A stretch of 64,000 nt of DNA from Anaerovoracaceae bacterium (GCA_045604305.1 JAZUNV010000064.1:893-64892), one strand, 5' to 3'; shown: positions 35,338 to 41,567, counted from the stretch's first letter. A program made the numbers and translations. The notes: a model not told the origin generated them from the sequence alone.

Positions 35338-35625
35338 CTACTTCGGAAAGCTGCCCTTCTCTTCGGTAAGGCCGCAGATGTAGTTCATGTCCACATCATA
35401 AAACTTCGCGAGCGATATGAGGATCTCCACCGGCACTCGCACATTGCCGAGCTCATACTCCGCATATGCCCGCTGGCTCACCATCAGGTGCTCAGCGACT
35501 CTGGTCTGCGAAAGGCCTTCATCCTCTCTGAGCTCCCTGATCCTCCTTGCGGATGCAGGCAGCTCTCGTTCTTCCATGCTTATTTTTTTGCGCCTTTTTT
35601 CCATCCTTTTTCCGTCGTTCACCAT
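35338..35625 (-). CDS. XRE-family helix-turn-helix transcriptional regulator
   Basis: IRELREDEGLSQTRVAEHLMVSQRAYAEYELG is a typical HTH_XRE. Confidence 0.85.
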   Translation of the reverse strand: MVNDGKRMEKRRKKISMEERELPASARRIRELREDEGLSQTRVAEHLMVSQRAYAEYELGNVRVPVEILISLAKFYDVDMNYICGLTEEKGSFPK

Positions 35626-35749: not shown

Positions 35750-36562
35750 ATGAAGTTTCTGATAGTAGATGACGAGCAGGGAGCGCGTGAAGACCTGATG
35801 CGCGCTGTCTGCAATGTGACCGGTCCGGCAGAGATCGTCATGGCGAAGACTGCTGCCGAAGCACTGGAGCATGCGGGGAGGACCGTCTTTGATGCTATCT
35901 TTCTGGACATAAATCTCCCGGACATGGACGGACTGATCACCGCCCGGGAGATGACTGCGATACATCCCGGCACTAACATCATAATCCAGACCGCGGATCC
36001 GAAATTCGCTCTAGAGGCTTACGGCCTGTATGTCTGTGACTACATCCTCAAGCCTGTGAGTGAGAAGGATATCAGGAGGGCGCTTGAGCATCTGCGTTGG
36101 CCTGTCAGTGAAGCTCTTCCCAAGCTCGAAGTGCACTGCTTCGGCCGATTCGAGGTCTTCTGGAACGGAAGGCCCCTGAAGTTCGGCAGGAACGGAAGCA
36201 AGGAGCTGCTGGCATATCTGATAGACCACAGAGGTGAGCTGGTAAGCATGGATGAGATTGCGTATGCGCTGTGCGAGGATATCGGGGATGTGACGAGAGC
36301 AAAGATCCACATAAGGGTCTTCCTCTGCGACCTGAACCATACCCTGGACCGCATAGGCATGGGAGAAGTGCTTGTCAGGAAGCGCGGTGAGGCGGCGATA
36401 TGTCGTGACATGGTCGACTGCGACTACTACAGGCTGCTGGACGGAGAGCCCGAGGCGTCAAGGAGATTCAGGGGCGAATACATGACACAGTACAGCTGGG
36501 CGGAATATACCGAAGGGGAGTTATGGTTCGAGAGGCCGCTGTCGGGTCTGTGCATGGCCTGA
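35750..36562 (+). CDS. Orphan response regulator: receiver domain plus SARP/OmpR-like winged helix
   Basis: The receiver has FLIVDDE...DAIFLDINLPDMDG...KP. The C-terminus LEVHCFGRFEVFWNGRPLKF...SKELLAYLI is typical of SARP-type DNA-binding domains. There is no adjacent kinase. Confidence 0.85.
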   Translation: MKFLIVDDEQGAREDLMRAVCNVTGPAEIVMAKTAAEALEHAGRTVFDAIFLDINLPDMDGLITAREMTAIHPGTNIIIQTADPKFALEAYGLYVCDYILKPVSEKDIRRALEHLRWPVSEALPKLEVHCFGRFEVFWNGRPLKFGRNGSKELLAYLIDHRGELVSMDEIAYALCEDIGDVTRAKIHIRVFLCDLNHTLDRIGMGEVLVRKRGEAAICRDMVDCDYYRLLDGEPEASRRFRGEYMTQYSWAEYTEGELWFERPLSGLCMA

Positions 36563-36638: not shown

Positions 36639-38195
36639 ATGACAAAGAAGAAAAAAGCAGCATTGGCAGTTGCGGCAGCGGCGGTGCTTGCCCTCGGGGG
36701 CACGCTTGCATGGCTCTCGTCCGCCGACGGAGCGGTCACAAATGAATGGGATGCAAACAGAGTCCGGGTCGAACTGACAGAGACAGGAGTCGATGAGAAC
36801 GGTGTAAATGACAGCTTCAGCATCGTACCGGGAACGGAGCAGACAAAGGATCCTAAGATCAGCGCCACAGCAGACATCCCGGCGTACGTATATGCGATCG
36901 TAAAGGATAACACTCACGGACTAGTGGAGTATGAGATCGATCTCTACGATGAAGATACAAATCCGGATGGATGGAAACCGATAGCAGACCTCAGCCTGCT
37001 GACAGGGGCGGTGTCTGCTCTGGATAAGGATGGCAACGAGATCAGCATCGACCCGTCGGAGGACGGAGTGAGCGTGTACTACAGAGAGGTCGCAGGCTCG
37101 AATGCTGATCATGAGCACGGGCCGTGGTCTGTGCTGAAGGGCGACAAGGTCAGCTACAGCGGTTCTCTGACCAACGAGGACATGTACGGTGAGGACGGTG
37201 AGCCTCTGTACGACGACATCTCTCTCGTGTTCAGCGCATATGCAGTACAGAAGGAGCCGTTCAACTCTCCTGAGAATGCATGGAACGGTGCGCCTGCTCA
37301 GGTGACTGCCATCGATCTGGGAGATCCTGTCGAGCTCGAGCCAGGCGCTCAGACCAGACTGACTGCTGCAGTGAGTCCGGAGAGCGCTCCGGATAAGAGC
37401 GTCACGTGGTCAAGCAGCGACGAGTCAGTGGCGACAGTAGACAGCGAGGGCAACGTAACGGCGGTCAGCACCGGCAAGGCGGTGATAACGGCGACGGCAG
37501 CCGACGGAAGCGGAGTCAGCGGGACCTGCTCTGTCAGCGTGGTGAGCTTCGGATATGCAGTCCAGCTGCACTCGACGGACAATGGGACCATTACATTCTG
37601 GCCGGCGATGGGGGTGAATGCCGTAAATGAAGGCATAGACCACGGCGGCGAGGATGATCCTCACGACGGGAAGTGCATCCATGACAGCGATGTCACATGG
37701 AGCTACATAAAGCAGCATCCGGAAGAATTTCAGGATTGCGTAGGGAATCTCTGCACCAGGAAGCTGGAATTAAACTCAAGACGCTTCTCAAATGATGCGA
37801 TCATGACAACTGGAGATGGAGGAGGCATGCTTTACGACGGACTGAGTTCGGATCAGAGGAAATGGGACAGCAGCGGCAGGAATGACGTTGAGACACCGAG
37901 CTACAATCAAACTTTGACCAAGATCAGAAGTAACATGGTCAACGGACCGGAAGGATCGACGTTCTTTCTTCTTAGTGAAGATGAGTTGACATCGTCTACA
38001 TCTATTAATGGAGACAGGGTAGTATACAAAAATGACAGATCAACTAATAATTGGTGGCTGGCGGACAGAGTCACTACCGGCGATGACCCTCTGAATGGCG
38101 CCTGCAGGGTCAGCGGCTCCGGCGTCATCGAAAACAGCTGTCTTTCGTGGGTCGGCGGAGATGAGACTGGCATCGCTCCGGGCTTCAGATACTAG
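36639..38195 (+). CDS. Secreted protein: SipW-type signal peptide, TasA/camelysin-like N-terminal module, Big_2 domain, uncharacterised C-terminal module
   Basis: Signal KKKKAALAVAAAAVLALGGTLAWLSS...TNEW resembles the SipW-cognate class. The Big_2 segment is LTAAVSPESAPDKSVTWSSSDESVATVDSEGNVTAVSTGKAVITA. Confidence 0.85.
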   Translation: MTKKKKAALAVAAAAVLALGGTLAWLSSADGAVTNEWDANRVRVELTETGVDENGVNDSFSIVPGTEQTKDPKISATADIPAYVYAIVKDNTHGLVEYEIDLYDEDTNPDGWKPIADLSLLTGAVSALDKDGNEISIDPSEDGVSVYYREVAGSNADHEHGPWSVLKGDKVSYSGSLTNEDMYGEDGEPLYDDISLVFSAYAVQKEPFNSPENAWNGAPAQVTAIDLGDPVELEPGAQTRLTAAVSPESAPDKSVTWSSSDESVATVDSEGNVTAVSTGKAVITATAADGSGVSGTCSVSVVSFGYAVQLHSTDNGTITFWPAMGVNAVNEGIDHGGEDDPHDGKCIHDSDVTWSYIKQHPEEFQDCVGNLCTRKLELNSRRFSNDAIMTTGDGGGMLYDGLSSDQRKWDSSGRNDVETPSYNQTLTKIRSNMVNGPEGSTFFLLSEDELTSSTSINGDRVVYKNDRSTNNWWLADRVTTGDDPLNGACRVSGSGVIENSCLSWVGGDETGIAPGFRY

Positions 38196-38203
38196 AACTT
38201 ATC

Positions 38204-40423
38204 ATGAACTCAGCATTGAAGATAGCAGCGTTCCTGTTGTCCCTGGCAGTCATCGCAGTATCGGGAACCGGGCTTACGAATGCCTGGCTCATCAGCAGGA
38301 CGGAACCGGCGGACAACAGCTTTATCAGCGGCATCGAGCCATACGGCAGCCTGACTGTGAGCAAGACGGTGGAGCATCCGCTCGGCAGTGATTACATCAT
38401 ACCGGAAAGCATGCGCTTCTCATTCGAGGTCGATCTCGGGACGGGATGCGCGGGCAGGCGCTTTGGCTCTTACAGCTGCGATGAGAGGGGCATCATCGAT
38501 ATTGAAGTGCCTGCGGACGGGAGCGCTGTTATAGACGGGATACCGGTATCGGCGGGGACGGTCACGGTGAGCGAGAAGGATATCCCGGCAGGCTTCACGC
38601 CGGAGGGCGGAGCTTCGAAGGAGATCAGGATATCACAGGCGGAGGATGTGCGCGCTGATTTCGTGAACGTCTATTCTCCGGAGCCGGCGGACAACAGTCT
38701 GAGCGTTATGGTCACCAAGACACTCGAAGGCCGCGCTTGGAAAGACAGTGATGAGTTCATATTCATTTTGGAAGAGCTAAAAGACGGCGAATGGAGGCGG
38801 ATCTCGGAGGGGTCTGCCTCCAGGAACCGCAGGACGGTTGACTTCGGTGCGGCGATGCGAGGGCTGGTCTTCTCCGAAGCCGGGACGTATAAGTTCCGCG
38901 TGAAAGAAGACGAAGGCTCAGCCGGCGGAGTGACTTATGACAGGGCTGTCAGGTACTTCGATGTGATCGTGGCCGATGATGATATGGACGGAAGTCTTGA
39001 GATAAAAAGTCCGGAGATGATAGAGATGGGATTTACGAACAGCTACGCTCCGCATGGATCCGCGGCTGTGGATATAGATATCGTCAAGGAGATGAGCGAT
39101 ACATCAGGGCAGGACAGAGGGCCGGAGGGCTTTCGCTTCGGCCTGTATGAGGGCGACCGGCTGATCGCTGCATCGGATGAAACCTCGGCAGCCGGTATGG
39201 CGGTGATCAGACAGGTATTCACACCTGAGGATATCGGGACTTACCATCGGACGCTCAGGGAGATAGATGCCGGGGATCCCGGGGTCGCGTACGATACGAG
39301 GGAGTACGAGCTCGGCATCACTGTAGCTGACAATGGTGACGGGAGCGTTAGTGCCTTCATCTATGATCTGGATAATGATCGCAGTGAGAGCAGTGGGATC
39401 CCGCCCGGGGTGACGGGCAGCTATGAGGCGGAGTTCGCCAACACATATGATCTCGTGGATGCATCCCTGACGATAAGAGGCGTCAAGAGGCTCGAAGGCA
39501 GGAAGCTCAGGGCAGGAGAGTTCAGGTTTGAGCTGTATGAGACGGGGCCGGGCTATGACAGCGCAGAAGGGGCTGCGGCGGCGACTGCAGTGAATGCGGA
39601 TGACGGCAGCTTCGGCTTTGACCTTACATACGGCAGAGCCGGCACATACCATTACGTGATAAAGGAGGACGCGAGCGCCCTTCCGGGCGGGGTCATCTGT
39701 GACAGTTCGGAGTATCACGTAAGGGTCGATGTGACCGATGCGGGAGGCACCCTGAAAGCAGAGCCTGCGGTGACGGATGCCGAAGGACATGAGAGAGATA
39801 TCGTGTTCACCAACAGGTATTCTCCAAAGCCTTCGGTACTGATACTGCAGGGCTTGAAGGTCCTTAAAGGGAGGGCTCTCAGGGAAGGTGAATTCAGCTT
39901 CGCCCTTTACCGGACAGACAGGCTGTTCCGCAGGGAGGAGCTCGTTTGCGAGACCTCCAATAACAGCGACGGCTCCTTCAGCTTCGGAGAGCTGTGCCTT
40001 GATGAAGAGGGCAGGTATTACTTCATTGTAAGGGAGCTTGCAGGCAGCCCGGACGGAGACATCAGCTATGACAGCAGCGTTTATCACATCACTGCCGAAG
40101 TCAGCGATGACGGGGAAGGCTCTCTTGTGACAGAGTATGAGATCTCGGAGCTTTGCGGCGGGACTGAGAGGAGCGCTGAGGAGATAAGGTTTACAAATAC
40201 GTATCTCGGACCGGATCAGGGCGGAAATGGCCGCGGCAGGGACGCAGGCAAAAATGATGTCAGTGGATCCGGAGACGCTAATGCGGCAAGGACAGGAGAT
40301 CAGGCAGTGCTGATCGTGTGGATGATCATCATGGTGGTATCCGCCGTATGTCTGGCCGCAGCACTGAGGCGTGCAGTAAGGAGAAGAAATGACAGGACGA
40401 CAGATGATGGCAAGGATGATTGA
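38204..40423 (+). CDS. Pilin-like surface protein: SipW-type signal, CnaB-like domain, about five Spy0128/FctA-type repeats, LPXTG-like AARTG plus TM plus basic tail
   Basis: Signal ...VSGTGLTNAWLISRTEPADNSF. Repeat modules end in VNVYSP, FTNSYAP, FANTYDL, FTNRYSP and FTNTYLG, with the internal pattern GEFxFxLY...DGSFxF...GxYxYxIxE. The tail is AARTGDQAVLIVWMIIMVVSAVCLAAALRRAVRRR. Confidence 0.85.
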   Translation: MNSALKIAAFLLSLAVIAVSGTGLTNAWLISRTEPADNSFISGIEPYGSLTVSKTVEHPLGSDYIIPESMRFSFEVDLGTGCAGRRFGSYSCDERGIIDIEVPADGSAVIDGIPVSAGTVTVSEKDIPAGFTPEGGASKEIRISQAEDVRADFVNVYSPEPADNSLSVMVTKTLEGRAWKDSDEFIFILEELKDGEWRRISEGSASRNRRTVDFGAAMRGLVFSEAGTYKFRVKEDEGSAGGVTYDRAVRYFDVIVADDDMDGSLEIKSPEMIEMGFTNSYAPHGSAAVDIDIVKEMSDTSGQDRGPEGFRFGLYEGDRLIAASDETSAAGMAVIRQVFTPEDIGTYHRTLREIDAGDPGVAYDTREYELGITVADNGDGSVSAFIYDLDNDRSESSGIPPGVTGSYEAEFANTYDLVDASLTIRGVKRLEGRKLRAGEFRFELYETGPGYDSAEGAAAATAVNADDGSFGFDLTYGRAGTYHYVIKEDASALPGGVICDSSEYHVRVDVTDAGGTLKAEPAVTDAEGHERDIVFTNRYSPKPSVLILQGLKVLKGRALREGEFSFALYRTDRLFRREELVCETSNNSDGSFSFGELCLDEEGRYYFIVRELAGSPDGDISYDSSVYHITAEVSDDGEGSLVTEYEISELCGGTERSAEEIRFTNTYLGPDQGGNGRGRDAGKNDVSGSGDANAARTGDQAVLIVWMIIMVVSAVCLAAALRRAVRRRNDRTTDDGKDD

Positions 40424-41357
40424 CATATTGACCTGGGCCGCAGTCGGCATAGCAGTGCTCGCTGCGGTCCTGCTCGGAGGCGTAAGACTTGTGGGCTTCA
40501 CCCCTTACGCAGTATCCACGGGATCCATGGAGCCGGCCTGCCACGTAGGAAGCGTGGTTTATGTCAGGCACGTCGATGCGAAAGAACTCGAAAAGGGAGA
40601 CGTGATCACCTTCAGGCTCGGTGGAGATGCACTTGCAACGCACAGGATAGTGGAGATCATCCGGGATGATGAGGGACTGTGCTTCCGGACCAAAGGCGAT
40701 GCCAACGATGCGGCCGATGCATCTTTAGTTGAAGCGGACAGGGTAGTTGGCAGAGTATGCTTCGACATCCCTTATCTGGGATACTGCGCAGCGTACCTGG
40801 GATCTCTCAGAGGCGTCGGTGCATGGCTGAGGGCTGGGGGCGGCTCGGCAGCCAACCTCTTCGACCCGGCAGAGACGGATATCGGGATGGTAGAGACGGA
40901 TACCGGGATCGACGGAGATGACGATGACAGGACGAATTCCTACGAGATCGTGCCCGGGGGAGAGCAGGATCATATAACGAAGGATCCTGCGGTCACGATA
41001 CCGGCCGGCAGCACGGACTGCTGGGTCTTCGTAAAGATCGAGGAGACAGAAGGCTTCGCTGACCTCATGTACTATGAGATCGCTGAGGGATGGACAAAGC
41101 TCGACTGCGAAGATAAGGTCTATTACCGGACGAGCGGGAGGAACCGTGCGCCCAGGAGATACAGCGTCCTGAAGGACGACAGGGTAAAGCTGAGAAAGAC
41201 TGTGACAAGGAGCCGGATCAATTCGCTGGAGAAGGGTACCTGTCCCGGGCTCAGGATCACAGCCTTTTCCGTGCAGTATGCGGCCTTCGGGAATGCTCGG
41301 GAAGCGTGGGCAGAAGCCGGCAAAGGAGCACTTGAGGTAAAGTGTTCCTTGACGTGA
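40389..41357 (+). CDS. sipW: Signal peptidase I, SipW (archaeal/ER) type, fused to a C-terminal TasA-like module
   Basis: Peptidase motifs STGSMEP, ATHRIVEI and KGDAND. Residues about 150-322 align with the N-terminal module of the 36639 product (SxxIVPGxEQ..KDP, VYYR, SVLKxDxV, A(F/Y)(S/A)VQ, EAW). The start follows TAAGGAG and overlaps the end of the upstream gene. Confidence 0.85.
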   Translation: MTGRQMMARMIDILTWAAVGIAVLAAVLLGGVRLVGFTPYAVSTGSMEPACHVGSVVYVRHVDAKELEKGDVITFRLGGDALATHRIVEIIRDDEGLCFRTKGDANDAADASLVEADRVVGRVCFDIPYLGYCAAYLGSLRGVGAWLRAGGGSAANLFDPAETDIGMVETDTGIDGDDDDRTNSYEIVPGGEQDHITKDPAVTIPAGSTDCWVFVKIEETEGFADLMYYEIAEGWTKLDCEDKVYYRTSGRNRAPRRYSVLKDDRVKLRKTVTRSRINSLEKGTCPGLRITAFSVQYAAFGNAREAWAEAGKGALEVKCSLT

Positions 41358-41362
41358 ACTGC

Positions 41363-41567
41363 AGCAGCGATAAGCCCTGAGGCGAGAGTCCTCGAAAGGC
41401 CGAAGCACAAGCCGTTCCGTCGTCCCTCCATGGGACTCCGGGAATTCCGCTCCCTCGGCAGGCTCCGGGAGCTCCAGTTCCCGGAGCTCCTTTCGTTGTC
41501 GGTACGCCGTCACGGTGTGCTTCTGACCTTTCTTGCGGGAGTTCTCGCCTCAGGGCTTATCGCTGCT
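41363..41567. repeat. 205-bp imperfect palindromic element with 25-bp perfect terminal inverted repeats
   Basis: AGCAGCGATAAGCCCTGAGGCGAGA (41363-41387) is the exact reverse complement of 41543-41567. Nested pairings are GAAAGG/CCTTTC, GAAGCACA (41402-41409) / TGTGCTTC (41516-41523), and the central hairpin GCTCCGGGA (41462-41470) / TCCCGGAGC (41479-41487). Confidence 0.9.

Follow-up and report, generated by a model that had tools for sequence, protein, structure and literature searches.

SipW-dependent fibres of the TasA/BsaA type are widespread in Firmicutes and archaea. In Bacillus subtilis, the tapA-sipW-tasA operon encodes a peptidase of the endoplasmic reticulum (ER)/archaeal type that is dedicated to subunits with a special signal peptide; the subunits assemble into fibres by donor-strand exchange, and a separate protein, TapA, serves as nucleator and anchor. 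The sipW-bsaA-bsaB-bsaC operon of Clostridium perfringens also combines a dedicated SipW with TasA-like subunits (PMC11580942). There, residues 28-38 of BsaA form the donor strand, V33 and F37 of its V33-x-N35-x-F37 motif enter the core of the neighbouring subunit, and an intermolecular isopeptide bond, catalysed by E56, joins N35 to K74 (Kivimaki et al., PMC11580942). Oligomers of BsaA are membrane-anchored, by means that are unknown (PMC11580942). In both systems the peptidase and its substrates are products of separate genes. Here we describe a locus in which a SipW-type signal peptidase and a TasA/BsaA-like subunit domain are fused in one gene. It lies in a stretch of 64,000 nucleotides (nt) from an Anaerovoracaceae bacterium (GCA_045604305.1 JAZUNV010000064.1:893-64892), hereafter the window. 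This fusion of an enzyme with a domain of its substrate type is genuine and conserved. Its features, numbered from the first letter of the window, are:

40389-41357, plus strand: sipW::tasA-like fused gene, 322 amino acids (aa) plus stop, from the open reading frame (ORF) call and profile, BLASTP and alignment evidence
40378-40383, plus strand: strong Shine-Dalgarno sequence AAGGAG, separated by 5 nt from the ATG that starts the fused gene, read from the sequence
40389-40493, plus strand: short cytoplasmic N-terminus (R4, R9) and single transmembrane (TM) anchor (residues ~11-35), from hydropathy and alignment with the first helix of canonical SipW
40494-40811, plus strand: SipW catalytic domain, residues 36-141, from TIGR02228, invariant alignment columns and the ratio of nonsynonymous to synonymous substitution rates (dN/dS)
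40524-40526, 40641-40643 and 40698-40700, plus strand: Ser46, His85 and Asp104 within the catalytic domain
40815-40829, plus strand: SipW cleavage-site motif V143-G-A145↓W146-L147 (P3-P1↓P1'-P2'), from family conservation and ortholog codons
40848-40862, plus strand: donor-strand-like motif A154-A-N156-L-F158 (family consensus V-x-N-T-F), its N and F family-invariant
40863-41324, plus strand: TasA/BsaA-like beta-rich subunit domain, residues ~159-312, from profile search, AlphaFold2 (AF2) and dN/dS
40893-40895 and 40980-40982, plus strand: E169 and K198 (in KDP), family-invariant residues of the subunit domain

Residues 1-141 make up an intact signal peptidase I of the SipW/archaeal type, whose only membrane helix lies at the N-terminus. 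Residues ~19-141 match TIGR02228, the archaeal/ER-type signal peptidase I family, at 91.8 bits (cut-off 51.85). The fused protein also scores 28.5 bits against PF10502 (cut-off 22.9) and 101 bits, below the cut-off of 190, against NF046067, the B. subtilis SipW equivalog; PF00717 matches it weakly. S46 (GSMEP), H85 (THR) and D104 (GDAND), to which we assign the catalytic role presumed from B. subtilis SipW, are all there, align with canonical SipW homologs and are invariant in the four fused orthologs. The 19-residue Kyte-Doolittle mean exceeds 1.4 only at centres 15-33, directly before the catalytic serine, and it stays at or below 0.91 across residues 120-175, whereas in a canonical SipW (P0010) the same measure reveals a further hydrophobic segment, at centres 150-159. 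An initial reading of the sequence by a model, without database searches (the sequence-only reading), had described a complete SipW at residues 1 to about 148, with an ORF that runs on beyond a second hydrophobic segment, and had proposed that the C-terminal TM helix of the peptidase doubles as the signal peptide of the subunit. The peptidase domain and its motifs stand, whereas the second helix is absent. There is only the one hydrophobic segment, and with both this helix and the hydrophobic core of the subunit missing, the idea of a dual-purpose helix has to be given up.

The second half of the protein, residues 142-322, gives no Pfam or NCBIfam match at E-values up to 10 and does not reach the threshold of TIGR04090. 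These profiles mostly span regions that are absent or altered in the fusion, namely the signal peptide and the first strand. However, residues 142-307 align with residues 21-215 of a 518-aa secreted protein encoded upstream (BLASTP E=2e-8, 28% identity). Thus, the motif-by-motif likeness through which the sequence-only reading had tied the extension to the N-terminal module of this neighbour reflects true homology. In a profile search, the domain had at least 6,166 relatives after clustering at 90%; they are nearly always standalone proteins of 175-220 aa with SipW-type signal peptides, the standalone family is 35-45% identical to the domain, and the top scores reach 217-251 bits. The best 120 are nearly all standalone, at 175-252 aa, one of them named 'SipW-dependent-type signal peptide-containing protein'. 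Among 123 aligned members, PF12389 (camelysin/TasA) is matched by 84, TIGR04088 (SipW-cognate signal peptide) by 74, TIGR04090 (BsaA family) by 31 and the TasA family NF046066 by 19, and through these intermediates the sequence evidence places the fused domain in the TasA/BsaA/camelysin superfamily. A145, N156, E169, P189, K198, P200, W235 and Q296 are invariant in all 123 sequences, and 9 of the 11 positions that are invariant in the 118 standalone members are kept in the fused domain, which also retains F158. AF2 predicts from the 123-sequence alignment a beta-rich fold (predicted TM-score (pTM) 0.75; predicted local distance difference test (pLDDT) 70.7, 70-95 in the core), and the monomer leaves the first 22 residues (142-163) disordered, as expected of an unpaired donor strand. 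The family profile finds nothing among PDB sequences at E-values up to 10. The family motif V-x-N-T-F together with the invariant Glu (LTET) and Lys (KDP) fits the description of the BsaA donor strand and isopeptide bond, and as a lead, N156, E169 and K198 may be the counterparts of N35, E56 and K74 of BsaA.

The two halves meet in an exact join. In an alignment of the fused protein with canonical enzymes and substrates (A1), the second helix of canonical SipW (TYAAISAGAILLLLVF) is replaced by VGAWLRAGGGSAANLF, which matches the part of substrate signal peptides that follows their hydrophobic stretch. The catalytic domain ends with IPYLGYCAAYLGSLRG in the fused gene, versus IPYLGYVANYIQNPPG and then the second helix in canonical enzymes, and the Q-x-P-P-G motif that precedes this helix in 192-226 of 234 canonical enzymes is lost. 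The fused proteins follow canonical SipW as far as IPYLGYxxxYxxxxxG and then pass straight into the substrate-family pattern (G)xxA↓WLxxxxxxxNxF, (G)VGA↓WLRAGGGSAANLF aligning against GGTLA↓WLTDTTDTVQNTF. The subunit has no N-terminal signal peptide of its own, with neither charged start nor hydrophobic core; the SipW domain directly precedes the cleavage motif. The cleavage motif itself is retained: the -1 Ala is invariant in the 123 family members, the Trp and Leu that follow are conserved in 87% and 93% of the 118 standalone members, and VGAWL and AANLF show only synonymous codon changes across the four fused orthologs, while flanking codons change the amino acid. That the three operon proteins share an AWL...N-x-[FW] pattern had also been noticed in the sequence-only reading, and AW[LI]-x(6-10)-N-x-[FW] indeed occurs exactly three times in the 62,961 residues of the six-frame ORFs of the window, once in each of these proteins; the accompanying view that the junction retains a SipW-type cleavage motif is borne out by the invariant Ala and by V-G-A-W-L in all four orthologs. 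We also considered the linker after IPYLGY as a 'pseudo hydrophobic core'. Its hydrophobicity is about two standard deviations above that of canonical enzymes, yet 12 of 234 equal it, and it was not used as evidence.

Apparent fusions of neighbouring genes call for caution, and an assembly or frameshift error, or a recent deletion that left a decaying pseudogene with an inactivated subunit, has to be weighed first. There is reason for such suspicion, as apparent SipW-subunit fusions elsewhere are errors (P0004; likely also P0145 and P0244, see below). However, full-length orthologs at 94%, 88% and 71% identity (P0001, P0002 and P0003) each derive from a different sequencing run, and on all three contigs the order is again response regulator, 518-aa gene, 739-aa gene, fused gene and iron-type alcohol dehydrogenase. 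Given these three further assemblies with intact orthologs in the same operon, the fusion is not a frameshift artefact. All four genes are in frame at the junction, with synonymous differences there and in-frame indels elsewhere. Read across the junction, the two other frames are interrupted by stops, and neither preserves any trace of a membrane helix. By the Nei-Gojobori method, dN/dS is 0.13-0.17 in the SipW half and 0.13-0.28 in the subunit domain; at the junction it is 0.29-0.40 for pairs with enough substitutions, at a synonymous divergence (dS) of up to about 1-1.7. Both halves are thus held by selection in the fused state. For the fused domain, these low ratios persist at dS up to about 1.2-1.7, and all but two family-invariant residues are kept. 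We therefore regard an artefact or decaying gene as very improbable and that explanation as effectively refuted, and the earlier proposal of an enzyme-substrate-type fusion, which had come with the advice to look for a sequencing error at 40800-40870, holds. As a separate observation, synonymous divergence is mosaic within the fused gene: between the window and P0001, dS is 0.02 in the SipW half and 0.18 in the subunit half, and between the window and P0002 it is 0.41 and 0.21, respectively. Such a pattern suggests that strains have recombined within the gene.

The fused form is very rare and was found in four assemblies only. Across 80 species-representative loci with 85 sipW ORFs and 209 TasA-like ORFs, sipW is followed directly by a subunit gene in 62 cases and fused to one in none. 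A GTDB scan with the ortholog alignment returned only unfused relatives, at up to 58% identity, and a GTDB scan with exact peptides returned no match. Exact-sequence look-ups of proteins from the window gave no record either. When a two-domain profile was run against 1.84 billion representative proteins, a single 50%-identity cluster (that of P0002) among the best 150 matched both halves; beyond these 150, more distant fusions of independent origin may exist. Two scans of the JGI metagenome collection, for the clade-specific motifs YLGYCAAY.. and DCWVFV.IEET, found neither. In the searchable literature we found no description of a SipW-subunit fusion, in agreement with the sequence-only reading, which had taken this type of fusion to be undescribed.

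Several other long SipW homologs were inspected. P0004 (386 aa, from L001, one Logan contig) appears to join SipW to a full subunit preprotein and was rejected as a true fusion. It carries a 1-nt deletion in an A-run that shifts the frame past the sipW stop, and the near-identical contigs L085 and L086 have two genes, of 174 and 185 aa; it is a warning about apparent fusions of this gene pair. P0145 and P0244, in which SipW runs into the start of the next gene, look error-ridden or truncated (within its SipW domain, P0145 has a garbled stretch) and are likely errors too. In P0136 (174 aa), the N-terminal domain of SipW runs straight into the final ~45 residues of a subunit (…TITVTAYAVQKDGF…), apparently a separate deletion or a chimera of this gene pair. 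The other long homologs inspected (302-473 aa) keep the second helix and have low-complexity cytoplasmic tails and no subunit domains. Among SipW homologs of 320-470 aa, P0166, P0167, P0186, P0191, P0192, P0200, P0222, P0229, P0247, P0252 and others end in long repeat tails rich in Q, Y, G and P (for example QQYPQGYAQQ), which are of low complexity and prion-like. P0023 (389 aa, JGI) apparently contains two tandem SipW-type domains, each with a membrane segment, GSM(E/A)P, THR and GDAN.

The fused gene is both the sole SipW and the sole small-subunit-type module in the window, and it follows two genes whose products carry a TIGR04088-like signal peptide:

36639-38195, plus strand: 518-aa secreted protein, with SipW-type signal peptide GGTLA↓WL and donor motif V-T-N35-E-W
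38204-40423, plus strand: 739-aa pilin-like protein, with SipW-type signal peptide GLTNA↓WL and donor motif A-D-N-S-F

The 518-aa protein consists of a TasA/BsaA-like acceptor module (~20-215), a Big_2 domain (E=4e-19) and an uncharacterised C-terminal domain of ~220 aa; its match to TIGR04090 is weak, whereas the family C-domain profile gives E=2e-27. The 739-aa protein, whose gene overlaps the start of the fused gene by 35 nt, contains four Spy0128/FctA isopeptide domains (PF12892, E=4e-60, in four stretches), matches TIGR03786 and has no TasA-like acceptor module, the family C-domain profile giving no match. With a donor strand and no acceptor module, it would be confined to one end of a donor-strand chain. 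Its C-terminus (~40270-40420) resembles a sorting signal, with an unusual NAARTGD, a hydrophobic helix and an Arg-rich tail (RRAVRRR); no sortase gene was seen beside the operon. Among 440 ORFs, the signal-peptide/donor profile picks out the 518-aa protein at E=4e-8 and the 739-aa protein at E=1.7e-5. Both are presumed SipW substrates, the 518-aa protein presumably as a fibre or adhesin component, and the SipW domain of the fused protein most likely cleaves both signal peptides, judging from the motifs that they carry.

How might such a gene have arisen, and what would its product do? A single in-frame deletion could have removed the second helix and cytoplasmic tail of SipW, the intergenic material and, from the signal peptide of the subunit, its charged and its hydrophobic part. 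The fused domain is closest to the second small subunit of related unfused operons, the type carrying Asn/Glu/Lys, in 32 of its 40 best matches, so the deletion probably also took the first small-subunit gene, or else a rearrangement preceded it. Since the two lost passes are antiparallel, one out-to-in and one in-to-out, their joint loss would preserve topology, and the product is predicted to be a type II membrane protein with both SipW and subunit domains outside the cytoplasm. With the second helix and the signal-peptide core both absent, export of the fused domain must rely on the N-terminal anchor of SipW, so that the peptidase would carry its subunit across the membrane by its own anchor. 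In addition, the deletion end points lie where the lost helices would meet the outer membrane surface, which would present V-G-A↓W-L about as high above the membrane as in a normal preprotein. A cut there, by the SipW domain of the same or a neighbouring molecule, would release a 177-residue subunit with the new N-terminus W146...A-A-N-L-F as its donor strand. This subunit could then join the 518- and 739-aa proteins by donor-strand exchange, and an Asn-Lys isopeptide lock through N156, E169 and K198 may follow, as in BsaA. The covalent tether could stand in for the hydrophobic core by concentrating the substrate at the enzyme. A further argument for cleavage is that small subunits of this type presumably form the shaft, for which free subunits are needed. 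This release of the subunit from SipW is the reading that we favour, at even chances on the sequence evidence.

Several observations weigh against this favoured reading. Type I signal peptidases normally need a hydrophobic core to present the cleavage site, and none precedes the motif here. The junction alone reaches just 3.3 bits against the family signal-peptide/donor profile, and 7 of 13 family-conserved positions in the cleavage and donor segment are altered (T143V, T151G, V154A, T157L, T159D, G161A and L167M). The conserved blocks of six and five residues are compared among only four related sequences, so that their statistics are weak. A 1:1 ratio of enzyme to subunit is odd for a shaft subunit. 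On the structural side, the best PDB match in Foldseek, the TasA-like archaeal pilin AbpA (7UEG; E=0.019, TM-score 0.30), is not significant, and the AF2 model of the full-length protein, built from a 10-sequence alignment, is of low confidence (pLDDT 58.7, below 50 at the junction) and thus uninformative on docking of the junction in the active site. In addition, the mapping of the Asn/Glu/Lys triad onto BsaA rests on motif position, and Asn and Glu are 13 residues apart here versus 21 in BsaA.

Some of these points would be explained if the junction stayed uncut, so that the subunit domain remains tethered for good through the SipW helix, as an anchor in the membrane or a primer on which the structure would be based or initiated. 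The empty acceptor groove could take the freshly exposed donor strand of the 518- or 739-aa protein, or the tethered donor strand could enter the groove of the 518-aa protein, and an isopeptide lock would make the attachment covalent; processing and assembly would then be coupled on one polypeptide. A motif that no hydrophobic core precedes makes a poor classical substrate, and the acceptor-side invariants (E169, K198, KDP, W235 and Q296) are better kept than the donor side, 40 of 58 conserved columns being matched in the core versus 6 of 13 in the cleavage and donor segment. An anchor distinct from the shaft has a precedent in TapA, and an operon that has shrunk to two large donor-strand proteins, the window lacking any standalone small subunit, fits an anchor, as does the 1:1 ratio. 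However, V-G-A↓W-L, including its family-invariant -1 Ala, has changed only synonymously, for which an uncleaved anchor has no obvious need, and the 739-aa protein has a C-terminal anchor of its own, so that some chain topologies would be tethered at both ends. We consider a permanent anchor a serious possibility, with the balance tilted against it. Taken more broadly, the fused protein may be a self-contained processing-and-assembly machine that either cuts itself (in cis or between neighbours) without a hydrophobic core or stays intact and isopeptide-linked to the fibre as its anchor, a proposal that we hold tentatively, at slightly less than even chances.

Purifying selection on a domain whose donor segment has diverged from the family consensus could also be read differently, with the fused domain outside the fibre as a docking or chaperone-like module that binds the 518- and 739-aa proteins transiently by their donor strands, recruiting them to SipW or preventing premature assembly, much as TapA or a chaperone acts by strand complementation. 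SipA/LepA, a pilus-assembly helper in Streptococcus pyogenes, can be counted in favour of such a role. Strand-complementing helper proteins exist in TasA systems as well (PMC10151520). However, N156, E169 and K198, which would provide covalent and hence irreversible capture, are all kept and are invariant in the four orthologs, a poor fit to a transient chaperone, and we regard this accessory role as unlikely.

Other features that accompany the operon on the plus strand are:

35750-36562, plus strand: response regulator, 270 aa, with a receiver domain (PF00072, E=4e-18) and an uncharacterised C-terminal part; it precedes the operon also in L002
41461-41488, plus strand: GC-rich hairpin of 12 pairs with a weak T-run, ~100 nt past the stop of the fused gene

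The response regulator gene is the first of the conserved cluster, and its product possibly regulates the operon. Divergent from it lies a small helix-turn-helix (HTH) gene of the XRE type (35338-35625, minus strand); both genes are kept in L002, and the XRE-type protein may likewise act as an operon regulator together with the response regulator. The hairpin is a possible, weak candidate for the operon terminator, such sites being no commoner in a consensus scan than in shuffled sequence. It is flanked by a 36-nt inverted repeat, 86% complementary, with arms at 41363-41398 and 41532-41567 that lie 133 nt apart in the 308-nt spacer that separates the fused gene from the alcohol dehydrogenase gene; the arm sequence occurs nowhere else in the window, and an Rfam search of the spacer gave no match. 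Since the orthologous spacer in L003 is just 72 nt long, the repeat may be an inserted element resembling a miniature inverted-repeat transposable element (MITE) or a structured RNA.

The fusion bears on two questions, namely how the special signal peptides are recognised by SipW and how the fibres stay attached to the cell. It offers a substrate stripped to cleavage motif and donor strand and tied covalently to its enzyme, in which cutting by SipW can be tested without a membrane-embedded hydrophobic core. If the protein does cut itself, it would be the first enzyme-substrate fusion among the type I signal peptidases to process itself. If instead it stays intact and becomes isopeptide-linked, the signal peptidase itself would be the membrane anchor of a surface filament, and this candidate peptidase-borne anchor would offer an explanation for how fibres of the BsaA type are attached to the membrane. 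The operon would also be a minimal three-protein system for heteropolymers formed by donor-strand exchange and isopeptide bonds, and the gene a clean example of a topology-preserving fusion through loss of an antiparallel helix pair. Its general importance is limited by its rarity.

The closest operons without a fusion are those of Lachnospiraceae and Oscillospiraceae, represented by L009 (Acetatifactor sp.) and L076 (a Lachnospiraceae metagenome-assembled genome). Their SipW belongs to the same subfamily (48-52% identity), and their small subunits and the fused domain are members of one family (36-45% identity). They also encode a homolog of the 739-aa protein, which scores 383-406 bits, and every component carries the same signal-peptide and donor-strand motif as in the operon of the window. 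In these operons sipW comes first, followed by small subunit 1, small subunit 2, a ~560-aa donor-strand protein and an FctA protein, as compared with 518-aa gene, 739-aa gene and fused gene here. Unlike the fused gene, these are separate genes; the second helix is retained in SipW, and every subunit carries a signal peptide of its own. As an observation on these loci in their own right, up to seven or eight consecutive proteins in L009 (9920-16461), L076 (2-6531), L018 and L022 bear the same SipW-type signal peptide and donor motif, some with a TasA-like module and some without, which suggests elaborate heteropolymeric fibres in gut Clostridia. The fused gene belongs to an uncultured, gut-type member of the Clostridia that is probably Lachnospiraceae-like.

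With the C. perfringens system, our locus shares a dedicated SipW, TasA-like subunits and the donor-strand motif, and the family of the fused domain has invariant Asn, Glu and Lys at positions comparable to those of the BsaA triad; it differs in that the genes there are separate, the fused domain misses the TIGR04090 threshold and the Asn-to-Glu spacing is different. With B. subtilis, it shares a peptidase of the ER/archaeal type in an operon with special-signal-peptide subunits presumed to assemble by donor-strand exchange, whereas B. subtilis SipW has two membrane helices and is unfused, and TasA is without the Asn/Glu/Lys triad.

More distant systems combine some of the same elements. The FCT pilus operon of S. 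pyogenes encodes SipA/LepA, a signal-peptidase homolog that is needed for assembly, alongside pilins of the Spy0128/FctA type, but SipA is of the LepB type, has no catalytic residues and is unfused, and the pilus is polymerised by a sortase. LexA, UmuD and lambda CI belong to family S24, in the same clan (SF) as S26, and carry an enzyme and its own cleavage site on one chain, which is cut within the molecule in LexA and between molecules in UmuD. They differ in being cytoplasmic regulators with a Ser-Lys dyad, a cleavage site N-terminal to the catalytic domain and no role in secretion. By analogy, the self-cleavage of S24 proteins would provide a precedent within the clan for processing of the fused protein by itself or in trans. 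Taken together, the fused gene represents a new architecture within the known SipW/TasA-BsaA system rather than a new kind of system.

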